Source of the DNA: a virus
Taxonomy: Duplodnaviria > Heunggongvirae > Uroviricota > Caudoviricetes
Virus record (IMG/VR): IMGVR_UViG_3300045988_141393
Strand: one strand, 5' to 3'
Length of the DNA stretch: 60,346 bases
The notes under the pieces were generated by a model. That model was given only the letters and a program-made list of their open reading frames with translations, had not been told where the DNA came from and made no database searches. Below, piece by piece: positions 9,915-48,453 of the stretch. A program made the translations under genes and the position numbers. The stretch's first letter is position 1. Each line of letters starts with the position of its first letter.

Positions 9915-10621
9915 TGGATATCTGCATTCTTGAAAAGCCATCAATGACCAGCATTGAGATCGCGGAGCTGGTGGGAAAACGTCATGACAATGTGAAGCGT
10001 ACCATTGAAACATTAGCCGAATCCGGCGTTATTGTTCGTCCTCAAATTGAGGATGAACCAAAAATAGATGTAATGGGGCGTTCTCGATTAATTCAGGTGT
10101 TCCGATTTAGCGACGAGCAAGGCAAACGAGACAGTATCATTGTCGTTGCGCAGCTCTCTCCGGAATTCACCGCCCGGCTGGTGGACCGCTGGCGCGAACT
10201 GGAAGAACAAGTACGCCAGCCGTTGACCGAAATAGAGATGATCGCCGCAATGGCTGCAAATGCAGTTCAGCAGCAAAAGCGGCTTCATGCTGTTGAGTCA
10301 AAGGTTAGCCAGGTCGCTGAAACCGTCGAGCAAATCAAGAAGGGCAATATGCCAGATGGTTACATTGGCTACCGCCAGCTGGCGGCGAAATGCGGCCTGA
10401 CTGAAGCCAAATGTCGCAACCTTGTCAACGCTTACCGGATTCCCACCGATACACATGAGTTTTTAACTCCAGAGGGGGTATTGTCGCGTCGTTCCATCGT
10501 GGCCTTATCTCCCTTCATGAATGCTTTTAACCGGATGATGTCGGAGGCTGAACACCGAGGAAAACGCTGGTATCACCCCAAAATGGGGCAATTCCAGGTG
10601 ATCGGTTGGGGAGGTGAGTGA
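9914..10621 (+). CDS. ant: Antirepressor (Ant / Rha-KilAC type), copy 1
   Basis: 235 aa; N-terminus MTSIEIAELVGKRHDNVKRTIETL; C-terminal block shared nearly verbatim with 47512..48453. Confidence 0.55.
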   Translation: MDICILEKPSMTSIEIAELVGKRHDNVKRTIETLAESGVIVRPQIEDEPKIDVMGRSRLIQVFRFSDEQGKRDSIIVVAQLSPEFTARLVDRWRELEEQVRQPLTEIEMIAAMAANAVQQQKRLHAVESKVSQVAETVEQIKKGNMPDGYIGYRQLAAKCGLTEAKCRNLVNAYRIPTDTHEFLTPEGVLSRRSIVALSPFMNAFNRMMSEAEHRGKRWYHPKMGQFQVIGWGGE

Positions 10622-10818
10622 TGGACATCATGCAGGCGGTAAAAAAAATCAGGGAAGGACAGGCTGAAGTGTGCCGCCGTAAAGCATGGAGTGTTGGTGT
10701 ATGGGCCTGGCCTGATAATTACTCTACTACCGGATGGTTTTGTATTAATGGACTCCAGATCCGGGAAGTTGATTTATCGACGGCTGATATAGTCGGTAAT
10801 GATTGGATCGTGACTTGA
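10618..10818 (+). CDS. DUF2829-like small protein (Tad2-type fold candidate)
   Basis: 66 aa; VCRRKAW ... DIVGNDWIVT; homologous to the C-terminal extension fused to the second Ant copy. Confidence 0.4.
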   Translation: MMDIMQAVKKIREGQAEVCRRKAWSVGVWAWPDNYSTTGWFCINGLQIREVDLSTADIVGNDWIVT

Positions 10819-10826
10819 AGCGTGAT

Positions 10827-10851
10827 GCCCCGGCCTGGCCGGGGCTTTTTT
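10827..10851. terminator. Bidirectional hairpin terminator between convergent genes
   Basis: GCCCCGG-cctgg-CCGGGGC followed by TTTTTT. Confidence 0.5.
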
Positions 10852-11336
10852 CATGCCTCATTAGTTGAGGTTGCTGCGTCTCCGACTGGTAACAGAGCGG
10901 TATTGTGTGGTTCGCCAGCAGGCCAGCGATAGCCAGACACTCTTGATGTTGGGAATGCGCGAATATTAACCGCATCCCCCTGGTTCCCACCCAAGACAAG
11001 CAGATCGCCATTGGCGCGGCGTCCGACAACGAAGCCTACGTGCCCACCGCCTACGCGGGTAAATACAACGATACATCCGTATGCCGGTGTATCTAATTTC
11101 TCGCCCCAATCCAGATAGGATTTTGCCGACTCAAATCTTGTTGAGCGGATGCCTACACGTTCCAGCATTGCACCGACAAATGCTGCGCACCACGGCGTTT
11201 CATCGTCTTTAATTCCGCCGCGCTTGATGTCGCGCCAGAACTGAACGATTTCAGGGTTGTGTTTAGCGCCTTTTATTTCAGTCAGGCCAATGTGCTTACG
11301 GGCTTCAATTAGCCAGCGAGGTTCAATGTTTGCCAT
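10851..11336 (-). CDS. Cell-wall hydrolase-like protein (TIGR02594-type signature)
   Basis: 161 aa; IGLTEIKGAKHNPEIVQFW ... PWCAAFV motif typical of this phage hydrolase family. Confidence 0.5.
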   Translation of the reverse strand: MANIEPRWLIEARKHIGLTEIKGAKHNPEIVQFWRDIKRGGIKDDETPWCAAFVGAMLERVGIRSTRFESAKSYLDWGEKLDTPAYGCIVVFTRVGGGHVGFVVGRRANGDLLVLGGNQGDAVNIRAFPTSRVSGYRWPAGEPHNTALLPVGDAATSTNEA

Positions 11337-11487
11337 ATTTTTCTCCCGGTAATGGGTTAATAAGTAGGCAAACTATGGGGAGTATGTGATTTTGACGGTA
11401 GTATCGTCCCCCTGAAAATAACATTCTCCATACCCTCTCAACCGTACCGCATAGCGGAATTTTTTACGGTTTAGAGGGGGAAATCCT

Positions 11488-14400
11488 TTGGACAAACTAC
11501 TTCATTCAATCAGTGAAGCCTCCAGCTTAGGCGAACTGATTGAAATTGTTAGTCGGTTGCATAAATTACGTGCTGTTGCGACCTTTGGCGTCAGGAAAGC
11601 CGATGGCGTCAGTATTCAGAAAACACGCCGGGCAGCAAACAATGCCGCAGTAAATCTTCTTAATTCCCTTCCGCCCGGCTTCGATGGGGCGAAATTAACT
11701 GACGAACAACGTCAGATTCTTGCCGGGTATACCGGTGAAGGCGGCCTGACAGATGGTGAGGGCAGCCAATACGAATACTACACGCCACAGTTTATGGCTG
11801 AAGGTATATGGGATCTGTTTGCTGACTACGGTATTGATGGCGGGCACGTACTGGAACCATCAGCGGGCACAGGTATTTTCCAGGAGACAAAACGGCAGGG
11901 CATGATAATGACCAGCGCCGAACTGTCTCCGATTTCCGGTCGAATAAACCAGCTTTTGCACCCGGAAGACGATGTGAATATCGGGGCGTTTGAGGCGCTG
12001 GCGGCGAAAGACGCAATGTATGATCACGCTGTAGGTAACGTACCGTTTGGTGAAGGGCGTTCCGGTGTCGCCGGGCTTGATCCGGCATATGCAAACGAGA
12101 AGAACGTTGGCAATTACTTTGTGCTGCGCACGATCGACAAGGTTAAGCCTGGTGGGCTTATCGTATTGGTGGTGCCGAATGGCATGACCGATGGTGCGAA
12201 ATATAAAAAATTGCGCGATAAAGTCAGCCGTAAAGCGGAATTTTTGGGCGCACATCGTATGCCTTCTGGTACGTTCAGCGAATCCGGTACAGATACCGTG
12301 GTGGACGTATGGGTATTGCGTAAACACCCGGAAACCTTCCTGGAGATGATCCCCGACACGGATGATTCAACACTCAAATCGGCAAACGTCCTTTGGGATA
12401 CCTTCCTCAAAGGAAAATGGTTTACAACCGAAGGGAAGCGATTTGTTTACGGCGACATGGAACGTACCAGCTTCCGCAATACCCTGGTGGTGAAAAAAGA
12501 CGGTCGTGTATCCAATGAGTCGATGAAAACCGCGCTATCTCGTCGCTTTGATAGTCGCATCAATTGGGATTTGCTCGGCGTAACTACTCAGGCATGGCAG
12601 GGCGCGAAAGTGGGCGATAAACGCCTTGTAGGCGGTATCTGGCATGAGTTTGATGGTCTGAAATGGGTTAAGGACACGACAACCAAATCCTCCGCGCTTG
12701 ATGTAAGTCGATATGGTGTTTCGACGTTTGGCGATCTGCAGATCGCGTTCCAGTCAACAAACGGGATTCTGGCTTTGTCATGGGACCAGATATCGGCGAT
12801 CGCGTCCGACTATCCATCGGTTGTCAGTGATGAAGTGGCAGCAATGATTCGCTTTGCTGGCAAGCAGCGAGAAAAAGACAGGGAGCGCGTTATGCGCGGT
12901 GCGCTGATAGGTCAGTTGATCAACAAGGCACTTGATTTGCGTAACCTGGGTGTGAACGTTGATGACAAACTGGCAGATGCATCCCGCCTGGCGGCAGCAG
13001 AAGTTGCGAAGTATGGACCACCGCACGCCATTAAGCTGAATGGGCTTGCTGAAGCTGGCGCTAAAAACTGGATGACGTTCACTGGCAATGTGAAACAGGA
13101 TGGTTCCACTTCTGACCTTCTGGCAGGGCGACTTGATGTAACGGATGGTGCTGCCGGTATTGACTTTACACGTCCTGAACAAGTGATAGCACATCTTTTC
13201 AGTGATGTAGCCCTTAATCCTATAACGCTGGGAGACTTTCGTGAGGCGTTTGCTGGTGAACTGCCAGAGGACGACGACGCGGCCCTTGAATACCTGGCGA
13301 AATTTGATGATATCGCTATTGATGGGTATGGCTGCCTGCTGCCGATGGACCGCGCCACCAGCGGCGATATTGCAACCAAAACAGCATTGCTGATGGGCTG
13401 GCGTGATGCGTCAACAGGTGAGCAGAAAGCGAACTTTGAGCGTCAGTTGGCGAAAATCGAAGAGAAACGTATTTTCACGCCACTAAATAAAGTCACCGTT
13501 AATCTGAATGCCCGCTGGCTGGATCGCCGCTTGATAAAAGAGTTCCTGGCAGAGCAGGGCTATGACGAGTTTAAGTACACTGAACCTGATCTGAAGGTCG
13601 TCGATGGCATTCTGGTATCTCCGGACGATTACGAAGGTAAGGACGGGGTATTTACCGGCTATCAGCTACGAACCGTAAACGGCAAAAACGGGAATGAGTT
13701 CAAGAAGGCCAACAATAAAGACGGCTTCCTGAACCAGTTAGAAAACTACCTGAACGGTGTTAAACCGCGTGGGCAGAACGCTAACGAGTACCTGGATAAA
13801 ATTGCTCAACTGGAAGTTAGTTTTAACGACTGGTTACGCACTCACCCGCAGGCTGATCAGATAGCCCGCGAGTATAACGACGCATTCAATGGTTTCATTC
13901 CGTTCACGCATTCTGACGCACCGCTTGGCCTGGAAGGGCTTAGTGGAAAGCGCATTCCTCTTACTTATCAGAATGAAGAAGTTCGGCGCTTGTCAGAAGA
14001 TGGGCGCGGCATCATGGGATTTGGTACCGGGCTGGGTAAAACCACGACCGCGCTTGCGCTTGAGGCGTATAACTTCGAAACAGGTCGCACTAAACGCACG
14101 TGTATTGTTGTTCCGAAGGCGGTTTATCAGAACTGGTATCACGAGGCACAGAGTTTCTACAGTGCTGATGCCTTCGCCAATATGATGTTTATCGGTTTGG
14201 ATGAAGTTCGTGATGACAGCGGAAATATTCTGACCGCGCCGGTGCTTGATGAAAATGGCGAACCACGCCTCGACAGTAACGGGCAGCCTCTTACCAGAAA
14301 TGTTGTGAAAGAGTCCGCCAGCGCCGTTATCGTTCAGCGCATGAACATGATCCCGTCGTCAAATTGGCGAACGGTCATCATGACAAAAGAACAATTCGCG

Positions 14401-18324: not shown

Positions 18325-18360
18325 CAGATAAGGAGCGGCCCCAACCGGGGCCGAATTTGA

Positions 18361-18795
18361 ATGACGACATTAATTGACACTGTAAAACCGACGGAATCCT
18401 ACCTTGAGGACATTTTGCCGCAGGCGCTCAATGGCAGGAGTGAAGAAGAATACCTGACAGTTTATCTTGATGGCATGGTAGAAAGACTGAAGAAAAATCC
18501 ACAGCTTTATCACCTTTATGGGCCGTGGTGGCCTGCGCTTAAAACGTTATTGCTGGAGCGCGGCGACATATCATTTGGACAAGTTGTAGATAGTGATGTG
18601 GCAGAGATCTACAAAATGAGTCGCCCGGCGCTTACGGTTTTGGCTGGGCATCTGTATTCGAGCGATCGCCTGGGAAATGACGCGGTATACAATCCCGTTC
18701 ATGCTCTGGAAGTCGCACCTTATGCTGATGATACAGAGCCATACGTGTACATAAGTTACGACGAGTCTATAGAGAAATATCGAATCATGGGGTAG
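18361..18795 (+). CDS. Hypothetical protein
   Basis: 144 aa ORF. Confidence 0.35.
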   Translation: MTTLIDTVKPTESYLEDILPQALNGRSEEEYLTVYLDGMVERLKKNPQLYHLYGPWWPALKTLLLERGDISFGQVVDSDVAEIYKMSRPALTVLAGHLYSSDRLGNDAVYNPVHALEVAPYADDTEPYVYISYDESIEKYRIMG

Positions 18796-18797
18796 CC

Positions 18798-19058
18798 ATG
18801 CGAAAGAATCGTAGGTTTACGGTCGAAGACCTAAAGGAATATTCCATATCGAAGGGGTATATCCTTGAGTTCCACCGATACAAGAAGGTTTTTACGCTGC
18901 GAAAAGCAGAAAACCCTGCGAACTGGAGCTGGATATACTTTCCTCACACCGATGATAAGTTGGTAGAACTTGTTGATGATTTAACCTATGAAGGTTGGTT
19001 GATCGCAATCGACAAGACAATCAAAGAATTATCCGAACAGGATAAAATAACCCTTTAA
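18798..19058 (+). CDS. Hypothetical protein
   Basis: 86 aa ORF tightly following upstream gene. Confidence 0.3.
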   Translation: MRKNRRFTVEDLKEYSISKGYILEFHRYKKVFTLRKAENPANWSWIYFPHTDDKLVELVDDLTYEGWLIAIDKTIKELSEQDKITL

Positions 19059-19379
19059 AAATAACAGGTTGGGTAAATGCCATGCGATTTACCCTCCTTG
19101 TTGATTAAGGTCACTCTTTACTCTAAAAGCAAATCCGACCTGTTGCATATAGACCATCCTTGAGTAGTATCTCTCTTGTTTTACAAATCTAACGTTGTTG
19201 TTATTATTTCGCATATTTACTATCAATGGGTGTGTTAGAAAATAGCGCGAAAGAGAAGGCGTCGCAGTGAATATTCTGAAACATCCCCACATGCCGCAGC
19301 TCTTAGAGAACTGGAGAAAAACCCAGATCTAATCAAAAGGAACCATGAGCATTACGAGCAGGTTCGCGTCCTGGACTGG

Positions 19380-19688
19380 TTGTATCGCAATATGCGTTAT
19401 GTGTATGAGCATACTCACGCCACTCCAAACGGTGGCCTGCGAGGCATAAGGACGGCAATAAAAATGGTGGCAGAGGGCCAAAAGAAGGGATATCCCGATC
19501 TTTCTATAGACCTTGCTTGTGGGGGATACCACGGAATGCGCATTGAGATGAAACATGGGAGAAATCGCCTGACTCCCGAACAACTCGTCTGGATGACCCG
19601 CCTCACTGAAGCCGGTTACTACTGCTTTGAGGCGCGCAGTGCCGCTGAAGCCATAAAAGCTATCACGGAGTATGTTTGTCTTGATTAA
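19380..19688 (+). CDS. VRR-NUC-like nuclease domain protein
   Basis: About 100 aa; GYPDL ... GG-HGMRIEMK motif typical of VRR-NUC (PD-(D/E)xK) proteins; TTG or ATG start. Confidence 0.45.
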   Translation: MYRNMRYVYEHTHATPNGGLRGIRTAIKMVAEGQKKGYPDLSIDLACGGYHGMRIEMKHGRNRLTPEQLVWMTRLTEAGYYCFEARSAAEAIKAITEYVCLD

Positions 19689-19702
19689 ACGGAGAAATCG
19701 TT

Positions 19703-19903
19703 TTGCGTTTACTTAACGTGGCAGAACTTATCCCTGCAGGAACTAATGCTATCGCTCGTCGTCGCTCATGGCAGCAGGCTCTATGTATTGAGATCTCGAA
19801 ACGTATCAATGGAAGTTTTGAAGCTCGCAATATTGTTACTGGCGATAAGGTTCACATAACCCCGGAAAGTGCAAGCGCTGATGATTGGGAGTTTGTACAT
19901 TGA
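19703..19903 (+). CDS. DUF2829-like small protein
   Basis: 66 aa; IARRRSW ... ADDWEFVH. Confidence 0.4.
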   Translation: MRLLNVAELIPAGTNAIARRRSWQQALCIEISKRINGSFEARNIVTGDKVHITPESASADDWEFVH

Positions 19904-20199
19904 GCAAAAAATATTATGTGAGTCTGGCGTTCGCTGACGATGCGGGGAGGACGCGGAGTATCACGTTGAGCACACCGGTTAAGGCTGTGACAGCGCCGTT
20001 AATCCGTGAAGCTCTCAGAGAGCTGGAATTGGGTGAAAACTCGGCACTGTTGTCGGTTAGTTGGTTAGGGAAAATGTCAGAGAAACAATACGTGGATGGA
20101 GTTACCCCAATAACAGTAATGAGGCTACTTTCATTGCTGCAATGGGCCATCGTACCTGTATTTATCGCGTATCTTATTTATCAGGCTGCAACACAGTAA
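19885..20199 (+). CDS. Hypothetical protein with C-terminal transmembrane helix
   Basis: 104 aa; hydrophobic C-terminus LLSLLQWAIVPVFIAYLIY. Confidence 0.3.
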   Translation: MGVCTLSKKYYVSLAFADDAGRTRSITLSTPVKAVTAPLIREALRELELGENSALLSVSWLGKMSEKQYVDGVTPITVMRLLSLLQWAIVPVFIAYLIYQAATQ

Positions 20200-20207
20200 T
20201 TGCATAA

Positions 20208-20232
20208 AAACCCGCCAATTAGCGGGTTTTTT
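20208..20232 (+). terminator. Rho-independent terminator
   Basis: AAACCCGC-caatta-GCGGGTTT followed by TTTT. Confidence 0.55.
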
Positions 20233-20274
20233 GTTTATTGCATCTTCCGGTACCGCCATCAAACTAATAAAATA

Positions 20275-20284
20275 TGTTAGAAAA
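20275..20284. promoter_or_regulatory. Recurrent TGTTAGAAA motif upstream of 20298 gene
   Basis: tgttagaaaa 14 bp upstream of ORF. Confidence 0.35.
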
Positions 20285-20297
20285 CTAATTTAACAAA

Positions 20298-21521
20298 GTG
20301 ACGGGAACAGCAATGAGTCAACACACTGATACTTCTAATCTGGAAATTATCTCGACAGCAATTGAAACGCTGCGCACACAAATCGCTCTTATACAGAAAC
20401 GGAATCCGGGTGATGACCTGTCAAAGCGACTGCACGAGAGTGTCATTGCCACTACAGATAACCTGGTGGCGGAAATCAACAAGCTGCTTGATGATGGGGC
20501 AGTTGATTACAATAAGCTGGTGGATCAGTTTGAGGAATACCAACAAGCCGTTAATGATGGCTTGATCCGTTTTTCACAAGTCACAGGCGTATCAGCGACA
20601 GTTGAAAGCCTGGGTGATGCAGTTAATCAATTTGCCGCGAATATGCGTAATGAGATCGGCAATCTGGAAGCGCGTCTTGAACAGGCAAATACACTGCGTA
20701 AATCTGCCGAAGCCGATTTGAACCGTTACAAAAAAGACTATCCGCCCAGCCTGACAAAGCGGCTGGATGTTGCGGAGAAGGATAACCGCGCGCTGAAAAG
20801 AGAGCGCCGGGAACTAAAAGAGCGTTTAACCAAGCTCAATCAGCAATGCATTGATTATCAAGGCGAAGGCGTCACACTGCGTAAAAAGTTGGCTACAGCG
20901 CAGAGCATTATCGAAACATTAAAGCGAGAGTGCTCACAGCTTGGTCACGATCTGAACCGTGCTTGTGGCATGGGACAAAGACCAGAGACATTTCCACTCA
21001 TGTATGATGGAAGGGATGCCATTGCCTACATCCATGAGTATCCGCACGGCCTGGTTGCGGAAACAGGGCAGCGTGGCGAAGCACTGTTGACGGCTAATTA
21101 CCATCAACAAATCAGAACCAATCGCCTGTTAACGATGGATGTGATCCCATCGGTATGGGGAACGCCGCTTTACTATCGCCTGCCGGGCTTCGAAAAGGAC
21201 TGGAATACCGACATAGACGAATGTCTCGCAGATAAAATTATGGCGTACCTGGAGACGGATTTTCCGCGCTTATATCGCCGGATTATGGACTCTAAGGATG
21301 CGCCAATCGATGAATTAAAAATGCGTCCGGAGACGCTGGAGGCAATCAAGCAGACGGAGTTTGATACTGTATTCAGTGTGGCCTGCATTCCAAGCTGTTT
21401 CCATGAAAGCATCCCGTTCATGCAAGGAGATCGTCGTCAGGAAATCATTGACGCTTGCCGGGTATGGGCGAACGAATGGGATAAGAAGAATGGGGGTGTA
21501 GAAGATCTTTATGGGAAATAA
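20298..21521 (+). CDS. Hypothetical protein with N-terminal coiled coil
   Basis: 407 aa ORF. Confidence 0.4.
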   Translation: MTGTAMSQHTDTSNLEIISTAIETLRTQIALIQKRNPGDDLSKRLHESVIATTDNLVAEINKLLDDGAVDYNKLVDQFEEYQQAVNDGLIRFSQVTGVSATVESLGDAVNQFAANMRNEIGNLEARLEQANTLRKSAEADLNRYKKDYPPSLTKRLDVAEKDNRALKRERRELKERLTKLNQQCIDYQGEGVTLRKKLATAQSIIETLKRECSQLGHDLNRACGMGQRPETFPLMYDGRDAIAYIHEYPHGLVAETGQRGEALLTANYHQQIRTNRLLTMDVIPSVWGTPLYYRLPGFEKDWNTDIDECLADKIMAYLETDFPRLYRRIMDSKDAPIDELKMRPETLEAIKQTEFDTVFSVACIPSCFHESIPFMQGDRRQEIIDACRVWANEWDKKNGGVEDLYGK

Positions 21522-22755: not shown

Positions 22756-22832
22756 GATGGTGTAGCTCAGTAGGATAGAGCAGCAGCCTTCTAAGCTGTC
22801 GGTCGGTGGTTCGAATCCACCCACCATCGCCA
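22756..22832 (+). tRNA. tRNA-Arg (anticodon UCU)
   Basis: Manual cloverleaf: acceptor GATGGTG/CACCATC, D GCTC/GAGC, anticodon loop CUUCUAA, T-loop TTCGAAT, 3' CCA encoded. Confidence 0.8.
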
Positions 22833-22837
22833 ATTTA

Positions 22838-22924
22838 GGGGAGTTAGTCCGTAGGGGTAGCGGGGTAGACTGTAAATCTACTGTCATTGCGACTCGGGTG
22901 GTTCGACTCCATCACTCCCCACCA
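22838..22924 (+). tRNA. tRNA-Tyr (anticodon GUA), long variable arm
   Basis: Acceptor GGGGAGT/ACTCCCC, anticodon stem GTAGA/TCTAC with loop CTGTAAA, T-loop TTCGACT, CCA encoded. Confidence 0.7.
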
Positions 22925-22928
22925 AATT

Positions 22929-23004
22929 GCCGGTTTAGCTCAGTTGGTAGAGCGCCTGCCTTGTAAGCAGGATGTCAGCGGTTCGAGTCCGTTAACCGGC
23001 ACCA
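22929..23004 (+). tRNA. tRNA-Thr (anticodon UGU)
   Basis: Acceptor GCCGGTT/AACCGGC, anticodon stem CCTGC/GCAGG loop CTTGTAA, T-loop TTCGAGT, CCA encoded. Confidence 0.8.
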
Positions 23005-24955: not shown

Positions 24956-25031
24956 GGCCCTTTAGCTCAGTGGTTAGAGCTGGCGACTCATAATCGCACG
25001 GTCACCGGTTCAAGTCCGGTAGGGGCCACCA
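24956..25031 (+). tRNA. tRNA with CAU anticodon (Ile2 lysidine-type or elongator Met)
   Basis: Acceptor GGCCCTT/AGGGGCC, anticodon loop CTCATAA, T-loop TTCAAGT, CCA encoded; resembles enterobacterial ileX-type tRNA. Confidence 0.7.
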
Positions 25032-25485: not shown

Positions 25486-26061
25486 ATGTTAATGGCGAAC
25501 GATAACGCATATGCAGAAGAAGATCTCATTTTGAGTGACTTCATAGGGAAGCGGGAACGCTGGACCCAAAAGCGAGAGGAACTTTACGCCTCATTAGTTC
25601 GCAAAGGCGTCAATATCGAAACCGCACAGAGCGGCGATATGACAGTGGTAAGCGTTGGATTGCACGGTGTAAGCGTGTCAGCAATCAATCATGAGCCATA
25701 CGTTGCGTTATCCGAGTCAATGGTAAGGTTAGTTAAGTTCCTGAAGTACACAGAAGCGAATAATGTAATCATTGGCAAAAAGAATATCCCTTTTTCCTCG
25801 GCTTTTTACTGGATGATGAAAGGGCTTGATGCCCGGCGGACATCATGGCCTAAAGGGAGCTATATATCGATGTTCCGTGGCAGCATTGGCAGCAAAGAAA
25901 AGCTCTTCGAATTCTTGCCGGAAGAGGCATTCGATATTGTGGAAGGGTGCGATGTGATGGTGATGCCTCGCCTGGTAATGATGAATGGGGATTTACAGGC
26001 GCAGACAGACTGGTTTGCAACTGGTGTGGATATTATCGCGACTGACTGGGAGGCTTTCTGA
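25486..26061 (+). CDS. Protein with C-terminal DUF2829-like domain
   Basis: 191 aa; DARRTSW ... DIIATDWEAF. Confidence 0.4.
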   Translation: MLMANDNAYAEEDLILSDFIGKRERWTQKREELYASLVRKGVNIETAQSGDMTVVSVGLHGVSVSAINHEPYVALSESMVRLVKFLKYTEANNVIIGKKNIPFSSAFYWMMKGLDARRTSWPKGSYISMFRGSIGSKEKLFEFLPEEAFDIVEGCDVMVMPRLVMMNGDLQAQTDWFATGVDIIATDWEAF

Positions 26062-26453
26062 TGTACGGGACTACCAAATTAAGCACTCAACAGGCCACCA
26101 ATATGGAGTGGTCTATCGCTAACTGTAAGATCGTGTCATGCAATGCCACGCGTACTGATGTGGGCCATAAAAGCACTATAACAGGCTATCTAGTAATGAC
26201 CACCAGGGGGATGAGGGTTAGATTTCGCTGGAAAGCAGAGCAAGTAACGCCATTCAGAGAGCCATCAATGCCGCTGCAGGTTGAGCAGGATTATCTATGT
26301 TTACCAGAAATAGATGGAGGAATGCTGGTGGAGTCTGATGGTAGTAAGGCTGATTTTGAAGCCAATTTGAAGCTGGCACAGGCCGTAATCAATAGTTATC
26401 GCGGAAAGTGGATCGCAAAAGTGAAACATGTTGTTCGTTTGTCTCGCTGGTAG
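26061..26453 (+). CDS. Hypothetical protein
   Basis: 130 aa, ATGA overlap with upstream gene. Confidence 0.35.
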   Translation: MYGTTKLSTQQATNMEWSIANCKIVSCNATRTDVGHKSTITGYLVMTTRGMRVRFRWKAEQVTPFREPSMPLQVEQDYLCLPEIDGGMLVESDGSKADFEANLKLAQAVINSYRGKWIAKVKHVVRLSRW

Positions 26454-33707: not shown

Positions 33708-34370
33708 ATGGCCAGCACTTTTCAGGTGTTCCCCAAATACAAATGCCACAGCATCATTCGGGCATCGAAAATCAAAGATATTGTTATTGTCGGCAAAGCT
33801 TATGCGCCAATTTTTGGCAGCATCGAAGTCGTGGAGCCAAAAGGAATGACGCTTCGTGTTGATGGTGTGTTCTTGGAAAAGTTCCGACCGCAAATAGGAG
33901 GATATCTCGTCACTGCTGAAAATGGTTATCTGGTCTATGTGCCAGAGAAAGCATTTGAAAAATGCTATAGCCGGGTTAACGACGCCTCCGAAAATGGGGT
34001 ATCGCTCAGCATTGAAGGTCACAATGGGGTGACATTCATTACAGCCAGGGACGTAACTATTTCTGCTGGCGGTATCGCTACTCTACAAGAAGAAATCGAC
34101 CTTGAAGCAGCCGACTTTTCTGACGCGCTGATGTGGATGAAGGATGGCAAGAAAGTTGCTCGACGCGGGTGGAACGGCGAAGACCAATTCTGCTGGCTGG
34201 TTCCTGAAGGACAGTACCCGGCACGAATGGAAGCCATTAAGGGATATTTCCCCGGCGACCTCGTTCCGTATGGTGCTTATTTCGCCTTAAAAAATGCACA
34301 AGGTGTAGTTGTTCCGTGGGTGCCTTCAGTTGGCGACCTGCTGGCCTGTGACTGGTTTGTTGTGGAGTGA
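33708..34370 (+). CDS. Protein with C-terminal DUF2829-like domain (Tad2-type candidate)
   Basis: 220 aa; ALMWMKDGKKVARRGWNG ... LLACDWFVVE. Confidence 0.45.
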   Translation: MASTFQVFPKYKCHSIIRASKIKDIVIVGKAYAPIFGSIEVVEPKGMTLRVDGVFLEKFRPQIGGYLVTAENGYLVYVPEKAFEKCYSRVNDASENGVSLSIEGHNGVTFITARDVTISAGGIATLQEEIDLEAADFSDALMWMKDGKKVARRGWNGEDQFCWLVPEGQYPARMEAIKGYFPGDLVPYGAYFALKNAQGVVVPWVPSVGDLLACDWFVVE

Positions 34371-39244: not shown

Positions 39245-39267
39245 AATTACTCCGTGTTAATTGAAAT

Positions 39268-40237: not shown

Positions 40238-40238
40238 A

Positions 40239-41694: not shown

Positions 41695-41707
41695 TGCGTT
41701 GTTTCCA

Positions 41708-42703: not shown

Positions 42704-42745
42704 AATGTATACCGACTCTGTTTTGTTCCGAGCGGTAAAATAATA

Positions 42746-42776
42746 TGTTAGAAAACTAAAATCAATGTTCTAACAC
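42746..42776. promoter_or_regulatory. Inverted pair of recurrent motif (candidate operator) upstream of DUF968 gene
   Basis: tgttagaaaa (42746..42755) and tgttctaaca (42767..42776). Confidence 0.4.
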
Positions 42777-42800
42777 ATTTTGAGTGCGTAAATGATTTGA

Positions 42801-43493: not shown

Positions 43494-43801
43494 GCGGCAA
43501 CCTTCTCCCGCAGCCAGATACAAACTGGACCATCTTCAGTGTCATGAATAGAGCCAACAAACCAGCCTTCACCCTCTGGTCGCTCCGGTTCCCAGGCGGC
43601 AATATCGGGACCAGCTGCGTCCAGATCAAAATCATCTTCATCCATACTGCGAATAGTCCACTGAAGATTATTTTCCTTCATCCAGGCGTCAAATTCCTCA
43701 GTGGATATATATTCACGACCTGCGCAAAACTTTTCATACTCCGGATGTGTCCAGCAGCCATATTCATCACGTTCTACCGGCATTTCTTTAATGATGCTCA
43801 C
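43490..43801 (-). CDS. Hypothetical protein
   Basis: 103 aa; ATGA overlap with downstream phosphatase gene. Confidence 0.35.
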
Positions 43802-44022
43802 TCTTCATCCTCCAAGTCGGCAACGGCATCCATCACATCCGAACCGCGAATAACCTCAAAAGCACGGCAGGCCATTTCAAACACCTGTTGTTCTTGCGGA
43901 TGCGGTGACTCCCAATACTTAAAACCAGGTCGATGCTCGTAACCCATCATGGAATAAAAATCGCCAGCAAGTTCAATCGCGGCATCAACAAGTTCGCGAT
44001 TTGTCATCGTCTGTTCTGTCAT
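43798..44022 (-). CDS. Hypothetical protein
   Basis: 74 aa ORF in overlapping gene chain. Confidence 0.3.
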   Translation of the reverse strand: MTEQTMTNRELVDAAIELAGDFYSMMGYEHRPGFKYWESPHPQEQQVFEMACRAFEVIRGSDVMDAVADLEDEE

Positions 44023-44294
44023 TTGGTTTTCTCCTGTCTGAACATCACTATCATCAGGTCGCCTTTTGTCGCTATCCTCGCTGTTGTGCCTGGTTCAATG
44101 CGGCTAAGTTCAAATGCGTCATAGAACGCTTCTAATGCCTTCTGGCGTAGTTCCTGTTTGCGCCGTTTTTTCCACTGTTTTAGGAAAATGGAACCCAGCC
44201 ATCGCCATGTGCGGGACATGATGTAAAGCCAACCGAGAAGTGCCAGACCGGAATTTAGGAGCGTATCGATCGTTATTGTCGTGTCGATATTCAC
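44019..44294 (-). CDS. Small membrane protein
   Basis: 91 aa with hydrophobic helix. Confidence 0.3.
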   Translation of the reverse strand: MNIDTTITIDTLLNSGLALLGWLYIMSRTWRWLGSIFLKQWKKRRKQELRQKALEAFYDAFELSRIEPGTTARIATKGDLMIVMFRQEKTK

Positions 44295-44707
44295 TTGCTG
44301 ATTCCTCTTCGAAGCTCATCGGCAAAGTCAGTTGCATGTTCACCGAGTAGTTTCCAGTTATCGCGTATATCAGATGCAAGCGACTGTTCGGATTTTGAGT
44401 TACATTTCTGTGCAAACATCTCCAATCCCTGCGCCCGGACTTCAGCCAGGAAAGCGTCGGTGGCTGGCGTTTCGATATCGTTAATTTCAGGAAGAATCTC
44501 TTCCCATGTGGCGATATCGCCATTCAAATGCCATCCGGCAATTCCACTGGAGTTATCCGCAACACTGCGAACGGCTTCAATAGTTTCATGCATTGCCGCA
44601 TTCTCCGCCGCCAGCGCCGCGCGCTCTTTCTCAAGTCGGGAAATTTCCGTTACATACTCAGCGTTACGCTCTGCCAGTTGTGCGGGCGTTAAACCTTCAG
44701 ACTTCAT
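44291..44707 (-). CDS. Hypothetical protein
   Basis: 138 aa ORF. Confidence 0.35.
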   Translation of the reverse strand: MKSEGLTPAQLAERNAEYVTEISRLEKERAALAAENAAMHETIEAVRSVADNSSGIAGWHLNGDIATWEEILPEINDIETPATDAFLAEVRAQGLEMFAQKCNSKSEQSLASDIRDNWKLLGEHATDFADELRRGISK

Positions 44708-45014
44708 TCACTCTCCTTTCGAAATAAACGTACTGATTAATCATTCCCAGGGGCATTTCGAGTTTTTCTGCGATCTCACGGCGGGGAACACCACACTGAT
44801 GAAGCTGCCGCGCCAGTTCTATATCGCTCTGCCGGTATTTGGCTGACTGGTGAAAGTCTCCTTTCAGAATCATGCTGATCCGCAGTTGCCGCGCTTTAGT
44901 CCTGACTGCGCCACCGGTACGTCCGATCAGTCTCCCAATAGTCTCGACTGTCATAGTCCCGGCGCACTGGCGGAGTATCATGATTTCCGCCCTTCCCCAT
45001 CCCCGCCAGCTCAC
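44697..45014 (-). CDS. Small HTH-containing protein
   Basis: 105 aa; HTH-like segment VPRREIAEKLEMPLGMINQYV. Confidence 0.35.
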   Translation of the reverse strand: MSWRGWGRAEIMILRQCAGTMTVETIGRLIGRTGGAVRTKARQLRISMILKGDFHQSAKYRQSDIELARQLHQCGVPRREIAEKLEMPLGMINQYVYFERRVNEV

Positions 45015-45634
45015 GCCGACATCCTCTGAGACATAAACTCCACAAAACGAACTGCATCTTCAGAAACAACGCCGCATGACTTCAGATAATTCATTGCGTC
45101 ATTAGGTAGCGGATTAGTTGGTTCGGCATTTGCCAGGGATTGAGATAAACGCGTGATTAATTTGACCATTCTCCGCTGTCGGAGGTTGTATCCTTCGGCT
45201 AAAGACAGGTAACTGGAAAGGGTATTGCTTAAGCGAGCGCGAAGCTGATCCGTGCCGTGACATTCAATAGCAACATCACGTAACGCATCGACCAGTTCGC
45301 GGTAAATATGCGCTGCCATTCTGCAATCTGTGTCAGATGGCGCTTCATAAATTACCGTCAGCTCCAGTTTTTCAGCCAGGGCGTGTTCTGCTCGTGCTCC
45401 TGCGGACGCTTCCCAGCCCTTAAGCAGATAGATAGCATCAGCAGAACGCACCATTGCCAGGCAAATATCCATGTATTCACTCTGACAAAGGCCACCAGGT
45501 AACACAGCTGGATTCAGAACGATATGCCCTTCAGCCATCAGCTCGCTCGCTTTCGCATTAAACGCCGCACGGTTGTAATCTGGATAACCAGTCATCGGCC
45601 CCGCGATGTAAATTTTCAAAACTCGTTTCACCAT
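45011..45634 (-). CDS. DUF4406 (nucleoside 2-deoxyribosyltransferase-like) domain protein
   Basis: 207 aa from ATG 45634; KIYIAGPMTGYPDYNRAAF ... AIYLLKGWEASAGARAEHALA. Confidence 0.5.
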   Translation of the reverse strand: MVKRVLKIYIAGPMTGYPDYNRAAFNAKASELMAEGHIVLNPAVLPGGLCQSEYMDICLAMVRSADAIYLLKGWEASAGARAEHALAEKLELTVIYEAPSDTDCRMAAHIYRELVDALRDVAIECHGTDQLRARLSNTLSSYLSLAEGYNLRQRRMVKLITRLSQSLANAEPTNPLPNDAMNYLKSCGVVSEDAVRFVEFMSQRMSA

Positions 45635-45789
45635 CAAAATTTCCCCAGAATCGTGACGCAAAACATAAGCACTGCGAAAAGCTCAATACCAAGCTCAAGT
45701 AGCGCCAACGCCCCGAAAAACAACACATAGAACAGGCCAATCTCATTCACAGATGGCTGGTGGATCGCACTTAAAGCTATAAGCATCAT
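45634..45789 (-). CDS. Small hydrophobic membrane peptide; not in ORF track
   Basis: 51 aa read by eye (MMLIALSAIHQ...VLMFCVTILGKF), GGAGGA RBS, stop overlaps start of DUF4406 gene. Confidence 0.3.
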   Translation of the reverse strand: MMLIALSAIHQPSVNEIGLFYVLFFGALALLELGIELFAVLMFCVTILGKF

Positions 45790-45828
45790 GTCCTCCAAAC
45801 ATTTATCAGTGATGATATTAATGTTTTG

Positions 45829-45838
45829 TGTTAGAAAA
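45829..45838. promoter_or_regulatory. Recurrent TGTTAGAAA motif upstream of ref-like gene
   Basis: tgttagaaaa about 70 bp upstream of 45907. Confidence 0.4.
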
Positions 45839-45906
45839 TCAATTTTGAATATCTAACTGTTTTGATCAATCATAGAAAAATCGTTGAAAAGTAAGAGACT
45901 GCCATC

Positions 45907-46485
45907 ATGCAGAAACAGAGTTATTGGGAGAAACAGAGACAAAAAGCCATGCAAAAATTGGCTGACCCGGCCTGGCGAGAGGAACAAAGGGCAAAGCGCC
46001 TTCAACAAGCTCAACGCCAGCAGCAGCGAGCGAGAGAAAAAGCCGCATCGCCTGAATATCGGCAAAAGAAAATTGAAAAAGCAAAGCAATATGAACAGCG
46101 GAGAAAAGATAAAGCTGTATCCGCTCCGCCCAAGAAAACACGCACGTCACGCGGCCTGAAAGGCAGATCACTCACAGCCGATGAACGCCGGATACAGACC
46201 GCTATCGGTACTCTCCCCTGCATTGCCTGCCATATTCACGGGCAACATAGCCCAGTGGTATCCCTGCACCATATCTTCGGGAGAACGGCAGAGAACGCGC
46301 ATAAATATGTCCTCCCTTTGTGTAAATGGCACCACCAGTACGCAGCGCCAGCCGAGGTCCGAGAACAATATCCCTGGCTGGTCCCGGTTCATGCTGACGG
46401 AAAAATAGGCGGAAAAGCAGATTTCATGCGGCACAATGCCGATGAAATGGCGTTGTATCAGATGGCGATTGAATTGATAAATTAG
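45907..46485 (+). CDS. ref: Ref-like HNH endonuclease (recombination enhancement function family)
   Basis: 192 aa; basic low-complexity N-terminus followed by HNH core CIACHIHGQH ... HHIFG ... CKWHH. Confidence 0.6.
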   Translation: MQKQSYWEKQRQKAMQKLADPAWREEQRAKRLQQAQRQQQRAREKAASPEYRQKKIEKAKQYEQRRKDKAVSAPPKKTRTSRGLKGRSLTADERRIQTAIGTLPCIACHIHGQHSPVVSLHHIFGRTAENAHKYVLPLCKWHHQYAAPAEVREQYPWLVPVHADGKIGGKADFMRHNADEMALYQMAIELIN

Positions 46486-46816
46486 TTTTCTAACATTTTA
46501 AGTTGAATTGAAAAATGCTCCGATGTACATTCACTACCGATTGGCACACCGGTCAACTTTTTGAGACAAACTATTTAGTTTTTCGTATGATTGCCGCCGC
46601 CATACCAATGGCGGTGCAATATAGGTGGCTGAAAAGCCCCCGTTGACTCACGGTGTTCCAGCCTTTATTGCGCCGCCACCAGACCGTGGAACAGTCGATG
46701 GCGGCTCCGAAAGCAAGGAGTCACTACACTATGAACAGCTACTGTCTTTTCCCATCACTCGTTGTCCGCCACTCACGCGATAATCTGCATTCTTTACTCG
46801 CGCTGGGGGTGTCAAA

Positions 46817-46984
46817 ATGACCGTTCGCTACCTCAACTTTCAAATCCAGAACATCACTGGCGGTTGCTATGACTGGTTTGTCGCTCTCGGAAAAGAAGTG
46901 ATCACCGGGAAGCTGGATGAAGTGAAAGCTAAAGCAATGGCCTACGCCTGCAAGCAAGCCCGGAAGAAATCCGCCAAAGCATAA
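46817..46984 (+). CDS. Small hypothetical protein; not in ORF track
   Basis: 55 aa read by eye (MTVRYLNFQIQNITGGCYDWFVALGKEV...), followed by hairpins and terminator. Confidence 0.25.
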   Translation: MTVRYLNFQIQNITGGCYDWFVALGKEVITGKLDEVKAKAMAYACKQARKKSAKA

Positions 46985-47087
46985 AATACTGACTGTTGCG
47001 CCCTGGCATTATCGTGGGGTATATTTCTACGGCACCTTAGAAAAACGGGTGCCGGGATTGGAACCCCGGATAATGCAAAAGGCGACA

Positions 47088-47111
47088 CAGACGCCGAAAG
47101 CGTCTTTTTTT
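47088..47111 (+). terminator. Rho-independent terminator
   Basis: GACGC-cgaaa-GCGTC followed by TTTTTTT. Confidence 0.55.
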
Positions 47112-47149
47112 GTGTCATGCCATCGCACAGCCATACGTAGCGTTTAGCT

Positions 47150-47296
47150 CAGAGATCAATGGTAGTGCTGGCTGGGCTGCCGAAAGGCAGGCCGGTTCCC
47201 TTTTGCGCCGGTAGTTCCAACCCAGTCAGTGCTACCGCCATTGAGATTGGAACCTCACGCGGTAGCTCCTTAAATTAGCAAAAGGAGGCTGCCATT
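47150..47296 (+). ncRNA. Candidate c4-like antisense RNA / structured leader of Icd-Ant module 2
   Basis: Interleaved complementary segments GTTCCAA / TTGGAAC and GCTACCGC / GCGGTAGC upstream of the icd-like start. Confidence 0.3.
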
Positions 47297-47512
47297 ATGG
47301 CTACTACCCCTACCCCAACTCATTCTGAATTTATCTGGCGTTTCTATTCCTGCCAAAAACACCTGTATATCTGCGTCATGGCTGCAACCGAAGCAGAAGC
47401 GCGCTCATACCTTCCCGAAGAACCCTGCATTTTTGCTGCTCGCTTCACTCTTGATGCGATGGAGATCCTCAATTACTGGAATCTGCCAATGAACTGCGTG
47501 GAGGTGCACTGA
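47297..47512 (+). CDS. icd: Icd-like protein, copy 2
   Basis: 71 aa; EFIWRFYS ... AAT-EAEARSYLP; same stop/start overlap with downstream Ant. Confidence 0.5.
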   Translation: MATTPTPTHSEFIWRFYSCQKHLYICVMAATEAEARSYLPEEPCIFAARFTLDAMEILNYWNLPMNCVEVH

Positions 47513-48453
47513 TGAATCTGTCCATCTCTCAAAAAGCGACAATGACCAGTATTGAGATCGCGGAACTGGTAGGAAGTCGCCCAGATAGTGTGAAGAGAAC
47601 TATCGAAACACTGGCTAAAAAGAGTGTGATCCAATTTCCACAATCTGTGGAAATTGAAAATAAACAATCAGTTGGCCCTCGTCGATTTTCCAAGGCTTAC
47701 ATCTTTGAAGGCGAACAAGGCAAGCGTGACAGTATCATTGTCGTCGCACAGCTTTCTCCCGAATTTACCGCCCGGCTGGTGGACCGCTGGCGCGAACTGG
47801 AGAATGCCCGGGTACAGTTAAAATCAAAAGCCGAAATTCTGGCTGAAATGGCGCAAATGCATCTTGAGCATGAACGCCGGATCAACGCCGTTAATGCCCA
47901 GGTAGCCGAAGTATCGGCACAAGTGTCCAAAGTCGCTGAAACCGTCGAGCAAATCAAGAAAGGCAATATGCCGGAAGGCTACATTGGCTACCGCCAGCTG
48001 GCGGCGAAATGTGGCCTGACTGAAGCCAAATGCCGCAACCTTGTCAACGCTTACCGGATTCCCACCGATACGCATGAGTTTTTAACTCCAGATGGTTTGC
48101 TTGCGAGACGCTCCATTGTGGCCCTGGCCCCCTTCCGGAAAGCCTTTAAGCAGGTGATGTCGGAGGCAGAACCACGCAATAAACGCTGGTATCATCCAAA
48201 GATGGGGATGTTTCAGGCAATCCACCATCCTGTGCCTGAAAGCCCAAAGGATAATCTGTCACTACATACCGTCAGAGAGAAGATCAGGACTGGATACGCA
48301 ACAGTGTGTCGTCGTTCTTCCTGGCCTGAAGGTATATGGGTGTGGCCCGAAGGTGGATCACGAAAGCACTGGCGCACTATCCGGGACGGGAAAATCCATG
48401 CTATTGATTTAGCGCCAGAGGATATTGTTGCTACGGACTGGATTGTTAGTTAA
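47512..48453 (+). CDS. ant: Antirepressor (Ant) fused to C-terminal DUF2829-like domain, copy 2
   Basis: 313 aa; Ant blocks shared with copy 1; residues from about 255 onward carry VCRRSSW ... DIVATDWIVS. Confidence 0.55.
   Translation: MNLSISQKATMTSIEIAELVGSRPDSVKRTIETLAKKSVIQFPQSVEIENKQSVGPRRFSKAYIFEGEQGKRDSIIVVAQLSPEFTARLVDRWRELENARVQLKSKAEILAEMAQMHLEHERRINAVNAQVAEVSAQVSKVAETVEQIKKGNMPEGYIGYRQLAAKCGLTEAKCRNLVNAYRIPTDTHEFLTPDGLLARRSIVALAPFRKAFKQVMSEAEPRNKRWYHPKMGMFQAIHHPVPESPKDNLSLHTVREKIRTGYATVCRRSSWPEGIWVWPEGGSRKHWRTIRDGKIHAIDLAPEDIVATDWIVS

Follow-up and report, generated by a model that had tools for sequence, protein, structure and literature searches.

Tad2 of SPO1 (gp34.65; PDB 8SME/8SMF) is the founding gcADPR sponge of the Tad2/DUF2829 family (Pfam PF11195), and its published ligand contacts are W25, N26, W73, S76, T78, and D79. 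The fold of the family comprises an N-terminal helix, an antiparallel sheet of five strands, and a short helix ahead of the last strand, and Tad2 sponges are homotetramers with two pockets between protomers. In Tad2 as published, an α2 insert forms the V-shaped dimer, and the ligand pocket is made of core elements, not of the β2-β3 insertion. The W21A/N22A and S90A/T92A/D93A mutations of HgmTad2 abolished the binding of gcADPR. In HgmTad2, also described as AcrIIA7 (PDB 8KBI; 158-aa form 9KZR), the stretch between β2 and β5 is an insertion that varies, and in this protein a large insertion domain is the binder of cyclic dinucleotides; N-terminally extended Tad2 proteins are also known. ModTad2 (MoTad2; PDB 8V3E, 9EIB), from a Myroides odoratus prophage, represents a clade that blocks Thoeris of type II as well as Pycsar. 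In a published panel of sponge homologues, 19 of 84 inhibited none of seven systems, and ligand specificity is therefore not readable from sequence. Tad2 was detected in 93% of D6-like phage-plasmids in a 2025 survey. A second relevant system is the immI operon of P1, in which a C4 antisense RNA, icd, and ant follow one another.

Five ORFs with a two-block motif

The window, the whole 60,346-nucleotide stretch of DNA analysed here, belongs to a D6-like (P1-family) E. coli phage-plasmid, with 98% identity to phage D6 over 10.5 kb and 99.6-99.8% identity to E. coli plasmids of about 90 kb. In a preliminary description of this DNA, five ORFs (copies 1 to 5) were listed as sharing an arginine-tryptophan block and a C-terminal D-W block, and each was found where it had been placed, all on the plus strand. 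Among 509 ORFs (stop-to-stop, at least 50 aa, six frames), RR..W was present in six and D-W within five residues of the C-terminus in seven. Both blocks occurred together in four ORFs, and copy 4 carries a variant RRGW plus D-W, against about 0.08 ORFs expected under independence. At four to five ORFs, the motif is thus far more frequent than chance predicts. The form (A/V)-x-R-R-x-x-W proposed for the first block needs correction for copy 4, in which R-R-G-W is one residue shorter than in the other copies.

The same description had assigned all five segments to DUF2829, and its proposed check against Pfam divided them. The curated gathering score of PF11195 (25 bits) was exceeded by copy 4 (79.5 bits for the whole protein, 82.3 bits for the domain alone) and by copy 3 (39.1 and 40.5 bits, respectively), and copies 1, 5, and 2 stayed below it. 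By profile score, only copies 3 and 4 are demonstrable Tad2/DUF2829 domains. Nothing relevant was found with NCBIfam and PADLOC, and neither the N-terminal modules of copies 3 and 4 nor the neighbouring ORFs had a Pfam match.

The window was also scanned with profiles built without any window sequence, run on 756 window ORFs. With the HMM of the copy-2 family, the top four ORFs were copies 2, 1, 5, and 3 (1e-32, 1.7e-4, 3.1e-3, and 0.077; next ORF, 1.2). Copy 2 ranked third with the HMM of the copy-1/5 family (0.0081; next ORF, 0.36), and copies 4, 3, and 1 took ranks one to three with the Tad2-family HMM (8e-61, 0.058, and 0.24). The self-built Tad2 comparison profile was shallow (Neff about 2.9). 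Profile scans of the window and of the complete D6 genome detected no sixth copy.

Copy 4 carries a canonical Tad2 domain

Copy 4 (33708..34370) is a 220-aa protein in which an optional N-terminal module (residues about 1-94) is joined by a linker to a Tad2/DUF2829 domain of canonical type (residues 131-220; nt 34098-34367). In a phmmer search against PDB, ModTad2 (9eib and 8v3e) was matched at E = 1e-20, together with HgmTad2/AcrIIA7 and SPO1 Tad2. The C-terminal 90 residues align with ModTad2 end to end (E = 8e-27), sharing the GWNG loop, the W-x-P-S segment, and the D-x-L-A-x-D-W helix, and the domain matches HgmTad2/AcrIIA7 at E = 2e-11. Identity is 44% to ModTad2 (BLASTP) and 33% to SPO1 Tad2. 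At the six SPO1 contact positions the residues of copy 4 are W, N, W, S, G, and D, five of the six being kept; at the equivalents of SPO1 T65, D67, and H71 it differs, with N, Q, and V. Unlike ModTad2, it has an N-terminal extension of about 130 residues, of which residues about 15-94 form the optional module and are missing from D6 orf114. The insertion that is large in HgmTad2 is short in copy 4, of a different kind in copy 3, and absent from copies 1, 2, and 5. Copy 4 is labelled 'DUF2829 domain-containing protein' in RefSeq. It represents no new kind of gene, as the Tad2 of D6-like and P1-like phage-plasmids has already been annotated and surveyed.

Copy 3 is a divergent member

Copy 3 (25486..26061) encodes 191 aa, with about 100 uncharacterised N-terminal residues followed by a divergent Tad2-like domain (residues about 103-190). 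The SPO1 contact positions are partially retained (W, P or gap, W, T, V, and D), and a 14-residue insertion precedes the W73 equivalent. No direct sequence match of copy 3 was obtained among PDB chains. Its stop codon overlaps the ATG of the next ORF (TGATG). In D6 and the majority of plasmids the gene is labelled 'hypothetical'; some plasmids have it as 'MW1434 family type I TA system toxin'.

Copies 1, 5, and 2 form a group of mini-domains

The remaining three copies are mini-domains of 60-66 residues. Copy 1 (10621..10818) is a standalone protein of 65 aa (66 aa if counted from GTG at 10618); copy 5 (48271..48453) forms the C-terminus (residues about 254-313) of an antirepressor, and copy 2 (19703..19903) is a standalone 66-aa protein encoded between VRR-NUC (pmgM-like) and pmgR-like genes. 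Copies 5 and 1 are 41% identical. Copy 1 matched phrog_7385 at E = 2e-49, and copy 5 matched the same family at E = 4e-16 as well as the copy-2 family, phrog_7206, at E = 0.01. By hhalign, the mini-domain families aligned to one another with P = 2.8e-5. Together with the HMM rankings above, these matches show copies 1, 5, and 2 to be mutually homologous.

Their link to Tad2 was examined against the same Pfam model. Copy 1 scored 15.1 bits (E = 0.034), a sub-threshold match that nevertheless covers model positions 1-72 of 73; copies 5 and 2 did not match PF11195 even at E up to 10. Among relatives, PF11195 was the best Pfam family for four of seven in the copy-1/5 group (best E = 0.012) and for two of 10 in the copy-2 group (best E = 0.15), all below threshold. 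No significant match to Tad2 emerged when copies 1, 2, and 3 were searched against PDB chains, whether with single sequences or with family profiles. The AF2 model of copy 1 (pLDDT 74) has the topology α1-β-β-β-β-α-β, and its top Foldseek match in PDB was SPO1 Tad2 (8smf; probability 0.99, E = 0.043, TM 0.54). The copy 2 model (pLDDT 84) has a Tad2-like order of elements, yet Foldseek matched it only to generic SH3/Tudor-like barrels. In both models the order of secondary structures is that of the published Tad2 core. A further connection is phrog_643 (84 positions, labelled 'transcriptional regulator'), a family short like the mini-domains, which was matched by ModTad2 (3e-5), SPO1 Tad2, and copy 4 (8e-4). 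Copy 1 and two copy-2 relatives also matched it over most of their length, at E values (0.09-0.2) that are individually non-significant. These sub-threshold Pfam matches (E = 0.012-0.15), the Foldseek match of copy 1, and phrog_643 make the tie to Tad2 suggestive only.

Relatives were few: a word-indexed search returned seven for copies 1/5 and five for copy 2, and the alignments are therefore not deep. When the copy-2 profile was run against 1.84 billion proteins, only six further relatives of 66-76 aa and three repeat-protein false positives were recovered. Two standalone relatives of copy 5, P0004 and P0005 (81-83 aa), were considered as evidence that the domain can be an independent gene; P0005 was rejected as such, since it is a remnant next to an integrase gene and to IS elements.

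SPO1 Tad2, which belongs to the same Pfam family as copies 3 and 4, is about 25 residues longer than copies 1, 5, and 2, which lack the β2-β3 insert carrying α2; identity to it is only 17-27% (MAFFT alignment). At the W73 position, copy 1 has V, copy 5 has I, and copy 2 has an alignment gap; at the N26 position, copy 1 has S, copy 5 has P, and copy 2 has no aligned residue. The D79 equivalent is retained in copies 1 and 5 and replaced by S in copy 2. The W25 equivalent and the C-terminal D-W are retained in all five copies, and further conserved tryptophans (W29, W31, and W40) occur in copies 1 and 5.

Genomic setting of the mini-domains

Two genes for Rha/Roi-type antirepressors are present on the plus strand, Ant1 (9914..10621; 235 aa, without a mini-domain) and Ant2 (47512..48453; 313 aa, fused to one). 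Ant1 matched Pfam Phage_pRha (37.5 bits) and phrog_63, anti-repressor Ant (E = 4e-47), and Ant2 matched phrog_63 at E = 1e-61. Ant1 is 67% identical to residues 1-237 of Ant2, which in turn is 85% identical to D6 orf82. Each gene is preceded by a leader on the same strand. The leader of operon 1 (9437..9914) contains a c4-a1b1 target (9437-9489; RF03163, 54.4 bits), a C4 antisense RNA (9557-9642; RF01695, 68.8 bits), and an icd-like ORF (9690-9914), and that of operon 2 (47032..47512) contains an isrK-like RNA (47032-47110; RF01394, 62.5 bits), a C4 antisense RNA (47155-47242; RF01695, 76.7 bits), and an icd-like ORF (47297-47512). Both C4 scores lie above the Rfam gathering score of 45, and both ORFs are Icd-like in the D6 annotation. 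The arrangement of the P1 immI operon, with C4 RNA upstream of an icd-like ORF and ant on one strand and TGATG overlaps, is therefore present twice in the window. Copy 1 is the last gene of operon 1, and an intrinsic terminator (10827..10851, plus strand) with an 8-bp all-GC stem followed by TTTTTT closes the operon 9 nt past the copy-1 stop codon.

The preliminary description had reported Ant and the mini-domain as separate ORFs in operon 1 and as one ORF in operon 2, and had raised a frameshift as the origin of the split. The arrangement is as reported, with a TGATG stop-start overlap between the Ant1 and copy-1 ORFs on one side and the fused ORF on the other; the frameshift did not hold. 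A GGAGG Shine-Dalgarno sequence lies immediately upstream of the overlap, and the junction is identical in D6 and present in many plasmids, ruling out a sequencing artefact. A 17-nt indel separates the fused and split arrangements, and the split is a gene fission or fusion that has become fixed.

Roi-like proteins of Stx-converting, Klebsiella, and Providencia phages share 54-69% identity with the Ant cores. Association with a mini-domain, either fused or as a coupled downstream gene, was seen only for Ants of the D6 lineage, whereas the antirepressors of 540 other phage records end at about residue 237. phiP27 was considered as a second lineage with such an association and was rejected, the downstream gene being another ant.

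Copy 2 lies in a different setting, the operon darB-ulx-VRR-NUC-X-pmgR-pmgS. Its syntenic position is invariant among relatives at 32-50% identity, indicating that copy 2 is a syntenic backbone gene and not variable anti-defence cargo.

Discussion

We consider it fairly probable that the five copies represent a graded family of Tad2 folds with at least two roles, copy 4 being a sponge, copy 3 a divergent member, and the mini-domains modules other than sponges. By analogy with the solved homologues, the C-terminal domain of copy 4 would form a tetramer and sequester a TIR-derived or cyclic-nucleotide immune signal. The likeliest ligand class would be the one bound in the ModTad2 clade, with His-ADPR as the signal of type II Thoeris and perhaps also the Pycsar signals cUMP/cCMP, and the element may thereby be protected from signalling-based abortive infection. 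Copy 3, keeping both stacking tryptophans and the aspartate, probably binds another small molecule, or may have lost binding. Copies 1, 5, and 2 would be insertion-less 'core-only' relatives, consisting of α1, four strands, a short helix, and the last strand, and probably do not serve as signal sponges. Copies 1 and 5 presumably act with the Rha/Roi-type antirepressor, in operon 1 as a separate protein whose translation is coupled to it and in operon 2 fused to its C-terminus, most likely as a module for oligomerisation or partner binding; copy 2 is a fixed part of its dar/pmg operon.

Alternatively, the short copies could be ordinary SH3/Tudor-like β-barrels unrelated to Tad2, with blocks that are convergent or shared by descent among themselves only, leaving two Tad2-like domains instead of five. 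We regard this as unlikely, but less so than the other alternatives. For independent members of the mini-domain families, PF11195 was repeatedly the best of 24,736 Pfam models, with near-full-length alignment, and SPO1 Tad2 came top of 350,542 chains for copy 1. phrog_643 links both groups, the copy-2-family HMM placed a bona fide PF11195 domain, copy 3, fourth of 756 ORFs as the Tad2-family HMM placed copy 1 third, and the invariant G, R, W, and D-W columns occupy the same secondary-structure elements. At the other extreme, all five copies might be sponges with distinct ligands, together covering Thoeris I, II, and IV, Pycsar, and CBASS; fusion to Ant would then simply serve to co-express a sponge with the lytic switch. 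The diversity of known members, which bind 3'cADPR, His-ADPR, N7-cADPR, cUMP/cCMP, or cyclic dinucleotides, sometimes in separate pockets, fits such an arsenal, as do the W25 equivalent and D-W common to all five, the D79 equivalent and additional tryptophans of copies 1 and 5, and a pocket built from core elements that the mini-domains keep topologically. Against it, W73 and N26 are absent from copies 1, 5, and 2, and D79 also from copy 2, whereas mutation of either the W/N pair or the S/T/D triad of HgmTad2 eliminates gcADPR binding; the mini-domains lack the α2 insert of the V-shaped dimer, none of them passes the Pfam threshold, copies 1 and 5 track the antirepressor, and copy 2 is fixed in the backbone. 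An arsenal of five sponges is improbable.

Other names attached to the family suggest a toxin of a type I toxin-antitoxin system, after the 'MW1434 family' label that RefSeq gives to some copy-3 homologues, or an anti-CRISPR, since a DUF2829 protein was first reported as AcrIIA7. The MW1434 paper is a bioinformatic gene listing without functional test in its text, and the five proteins have no hydrophobic segment of the kind expected in type I toxins, which are small, hydrophobic peptides active on membranes, the maxima of the 19-residue Kyte-Doolittle mean being 0.67-1.41. We rejected both labels, and either function is extremely unlikely here. A more speculative variant of the graded family, to which we give little credence, retains a ligand for the short copies. 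As the published pocket is formed by the core and not by the missing insertion, ligand binding by mini-domains is still conceivable. The antirepressor-linked mini-domain may then bind a small molecule and link the C4/Ant lysis-lysogeny switch to a nucleotide signal of host immunity or stress, copy 2 being a third 'mini-Tad2' with a separate dar/pmg role. For example, the antirepressor might be activated or stabilised once a signalling defence of the host fires, which would allow the plasmid prophage to leave a cell that is committed to abortive infection.

In these clinically widespread phage-plasmids, copy 3 is a second PF11195 protein, and most records call it hypothetical. With its odd pocket, in which N26 is lost and an extra insertion is present, it is a candidate for ligand specificity of a new kind; the family has already been used to discover immune signals. 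The mini-domains of the graded family may constitute an unrecognised insertion-less branch of the Tad2 fold which, unlike anti-defence cargo, is tied both to the antirepressor of an immunity operon and, in the case of copy 2, to the dar/pmg operon, which is conserved. Such a branch, if confirmed, would show either the origin of the sponge fold or its co-option, and would caution against taking every DUF2829-like match as anti-Thoeris.

Identification of five copies of a two-block domain

The preliminary description had noted five ORFs with a common two-block motif, and all were present with the sequences as quoted: copy 1 (10621..10818, following ant1), copy 2 (19703..19903), copy 3 (25486..26061), copy 4 (33708..34370) and copy 5 (48271..48453, the C-terminus of the second antirepressor, Ant2). 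Among six-frame stop-to-stop ORFs of >=50 aa in the window (n=509), used as the chance test set, RR..W occurred in 6 and DW <=5 residues from the C-terminus in 7; both blocks together were found in 4 ORFs, against about 0.08 expected by chance. In copy 4, the first block is RRGW, one residue shorter, accompanied by DW. Family HMMs made without any window sequence were run on 756 window ORFs. The best four for the copy-2-family HMM were copy 2 (1e-32), copy 1 (1.7e-4), copy 5 (3.1e-3) and copy 3 (0.077), and the fifth-ranked ORF fell to 1.2. With the copy-1/5-family HMM, copy 2 was third at 0.0081 and the following ORF gave 0.36, while the top three for the Tad2-family HMM were copy 4 (8e-61), copy 3 (0.058) and copy 1 (0.24). 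The five-copy pattern is real and non-random. Neither the window nor the complete genome of D6 contains a sixth copy, and no membrane-like segment was seen in any of the five proteins.

Over 10.5 kb that include copies 1 and 2, the window is 98% identical to Escherichia phage D6, which is a P1-like plasmid prophage. Copies 1, 2 and 3 correspond to D6 orf17, orf11 and orf6, each labeled 'hypothetical', copy 4 to orf114 ('DUF2829 domain-containing protein'), and Ant2 with copy 5 to orf82 ('anti-repressor Ant'). Non-mobilizable E. coli plasmids of ~90 kb match the 3.5 kb surrounding copy 4 at 99.6-99.8% identity. By Rfam, the window also carries a three-tRNA cluster (22756-23001) and a fourth tRNA ~2 kb downstream (24956-25028), matching the annotated tRNA region of D6 (Ser, Thr, Asn in D6).

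Relationship to the Tad2/DUF2829 family

Assignment of all five copies to DUF2829, the family of the anti-defence 'sponge' Tad2, stood for two of them. Copies 4 (79.5 bits) and 3 (39.1 bits) exceeded the gathering score of PF11195 ('Tad2-like'; 25 bits), indicating that both belong to the Tad2/DUF2829 family; copy 1 stayed below it (15.1 bits, E = 0.034), spanning model positions 1-72 of 73, and copies 2 and 5 gave no match with E allowed up to 10. In PDB sequence search, the last 90 residues of copy 4 directly matched ModTad2 (9EIB and 8V3E, E = 1e-20; 44% identity), HgmTad2/AcrIIA7 (2e-11) and SPO1 Tad2 (9e-9; 33% identity), all structurally solved members. The copy 3 domain had no direct sequence match among PDB chains.

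The short copies 1, 5 and 2 are mutually homologous. Copies 1 and 5 share 41% identity, hhalign aligned the profiles of the copy-1/5 and copy-2 families over 63 columns (P = 2.8e-5, probability 74%), and the C-terminus of copy 5 matched the PHROG of copy 2 (E = 0.01). Several observations bear on their relationship to Tad2. PF11195 was the top Pfam family for 4 of the 7 copy-1/5-family members (best E = 0.012) and for 2 of the 10 copy-2-family members (best E = 0.15). The profile phrog_643 was matched by ModTad2 (3e-5), by SPO1 Tad2 and copy 4 (8e-4), and at 0.09-0.2 by copy 1 and two copy-2 relatives (P0039, P0041). Among 350,542 chains, the best match to the copy 1 AlphaFold2 model (pLDDT 74) was SPO1 Tad2 (8SMF), though at no better than E = 0.043 and TM 0.54. 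Profiles of the short copies aligned with the shallow Tad2-family profile at hhalign P = 0.016-0.039, and the pooled profile reached SPO1 Tad2 in the PDB only at E = 4.4. Descent from the Tad2 fold is thus plausible, and indeed likely, for copies 1 and 5; for copy 2 it is unproven, a possibility that we favor only slightly.

Pocket residues

In SPO1 Tad2, 1''-3' gcADPR is contacted by W25, N26, W73 and D79, and also by I63, T65, D67, H71, S76 and T78. Binding of gcADPR was markedly reduced in the HgmTad2 mutants W21A/N22A and S90A/T92A/D93A. The stretch from β2 to β5 is a variable insertion in HgmTad2, and helix α2, inside the β2-β3 segment, makes the V-shaped dimer of SPO1 Tad2. The SPO1 Tad2 sequence, taken from the phage record, was aligned with all five copies. 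The C-terminal D-W and W25 were kept throughout. Copy 4 also keeps N26, W73, S76 and D79, and differs at the positions of T65, D67, H71 and T78. Copy 3 keeps W73 and D79, has lost N26, carries T for S76, and has 14 extra residues ahead of W73. D79 is retained in copies 1 and 5, in which N26 is replaced by S and P, and W73 by V and I, respectively; S76 is kept in copy 1 and is A in copy 5. Copy 2 has no residue aligned with N26 or W73, and carries T for S76 and S for D79. Because the ~25-residue β2-β3 insert and W73 are absent from copies 1, 5 and 2, these appear from the alignment to be 'core-only' versions missing half of the aromatic sandwich.

Association of copies 1 and 5 with antirepressors

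Two C4 antisense RNAs were identified by Rfam (9557-9642 and 47155-47242), each with an upstream leader of c4-a1b1 or isrK type and followed by an icd-like ORF and then a Rha/Roi-type ant (ant1, 9914..10621; ant2, 47512..48453), linked by TGATG stop-start overlaps. The immI modules so formed (9437-10851 and 47032-48453; leader RNA, C4 antisense RNA, icd-like ORF and Rha/Roi-type ant) are complete, paralogous and of P1 type, the Ant1 and Ant2 cores being 67% identical. As described before, antirepressor and domain are separate ORFs in the first locus and a single ORF in the second, and the junction sequences bear this out: in operon 1, ant1 ends at 10621, where GGAGGTGAGTGATG gives a Shine-Dalgarno sequence and an ATG overlapping the ant1 stop, and the operon closes with an 8-bp all-GC terminator 9 nt past the copy-1 stop; in operon 2, the copy-1-type domain forms the C-terminus of Ant2.

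A frameshift had been suspected at the Ant/copy-1 junction. The Shine-Dalgarno sequence and overlapping ATG speak against it, and the junction DNAs of ant1/copy 1 and Ant2 differ by a 17-nt indel and substitutions. Since D6 has an identical split form, which also occurs in a protein cluster of 165 members, and the copy-1/5 domain is present in 123 plasmid records (fused in about 100 of them), the split is a fixed fission or fusion rather than a sequencing error. Roi/Ant homologues of 540 other phage records stop at about residue 237, the end point of Ant1. Phage phiP27, considered as a further case, was rejected: it gave the sole slightly longer match, and its downstream gene is a second ant. 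The association is thus a feature of the D6 lineage, seen twice, and by the 'Rosetta stone' argument both parts would act together.

In the closely related plasmid NZ_CP069886.1 (L004), no Ant2-type gene is listed from ref to mat in the PLSDB gene table, which is incomplete; this listing suggests that D6-like plasmids vary in whether they carry the second immI module. An 81-aa ORF annotated as 'transcriptional regulator' in E. coli draft genomes (P0005; loci L005-L009) is the detached C-terminal part of an Ant2-type gene; with IS elements and a Cre-like integrase gene beside it, it is taken as the remnant of a D6-like element.

Copy 2 in the dar/pmg operon

The copy-2 family comprised seven representative clusters among 1.84 billion, all of 66 aa save one of 76 aa. 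Its slot (darB, ulx, small ORF, VRR-NUC, copy 2, pmgR-like, then pmgS if the contig reaches) was unchanged in three divergent elements at 32-42% identity, and copy 2 overlaps the adjacent genes at its start and stop codons. Copy 2 thus behaves as a backbone gene, unlike exchangeable anti-defence cargo. In the window, the darB-to-pmgS block lies at 18361-21521, and its order is strict in L011, L012 and L013, divergent P1/D6-related elements from metagenomes; the arrangement suggests one translationally coupled operon joining anti-restriction and 'morphogenetic' genes.

Surroundings of copies 3 and 4

Copy 4 comes after dut. Residues ~15-94 of the protein are absent from D6 orf114 and present in phage SJ46, whose homologue is 80% identical over the full length. 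The N-module (residues ~1-94; 33708-33990) alone matches ORFs of Klebsiella phages ZX1 and LASTA, ORFs of Ralstonia phages GP4 and NK-7, and phrog_11049, and no Pfam family; it is an indel variant. In PHROGs 872, 1048 and 30130, the Tad2 domain is C-terminal within longer profiles, indicating that N-terminal extensions are common in the family.

Copy 3 lies upstream of lpa, is coupled to the following ORF, and occurs in about 125 plasmid records. That ORF (130 aa, 26061-26453; D6 orf5), TGATG-coupled to the copy 3 end and without a Pfam family match, may act with copy 3. RefSeq names for copy-3 homologues conflict among plasmid matches (H148, H153, H155): 'hypothetical protein', 'DUF2829 domain-containing protein' and 'MW1434 family type I TA system toxin', the last stemming from a bioinformatic list without functional assay.

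Proposed roles

The headline Tad2 gene, copy 4, is already known: RefSeq labels it a DUF2829 protein, and according to a 2025 survey, 93% of D6-like phage-plasmids and 56% of the P1-like ones carry 'Tad2 AcrIIA7 (anti-Thoeris)'. Ligands of other Tad2 proteins include 3'cADPR, N7-cADPR and cyclic dinucleotides, and sponge ligand specificity is unassignable from sequence because 19 of 84 tested homologues (about a quarter) inhibited none of seven systems. By analogy, copy 4 is very probably a Tad2 sponge, and a ligand of the ModTad2 class is tentatively proposed as the most likely. Copy 3, a diverged Tad2-like protein whose pocket is altered, has an even chance of being a sponge for another molecule. 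Copies 1 and 5 would constitute an accessory module of the antirepressor inside C4-controlled immunity operons; given that the Tad2 core fold oligomerises and that they lack key ligand residues, their putative role is most likely oligomerisation or partner binding. Copy 2 is a small, conserved member of the dar/pmg operon. The remaining novelty lies in a candidate insertion-less Tad2-like clade linked to an antirepressor.
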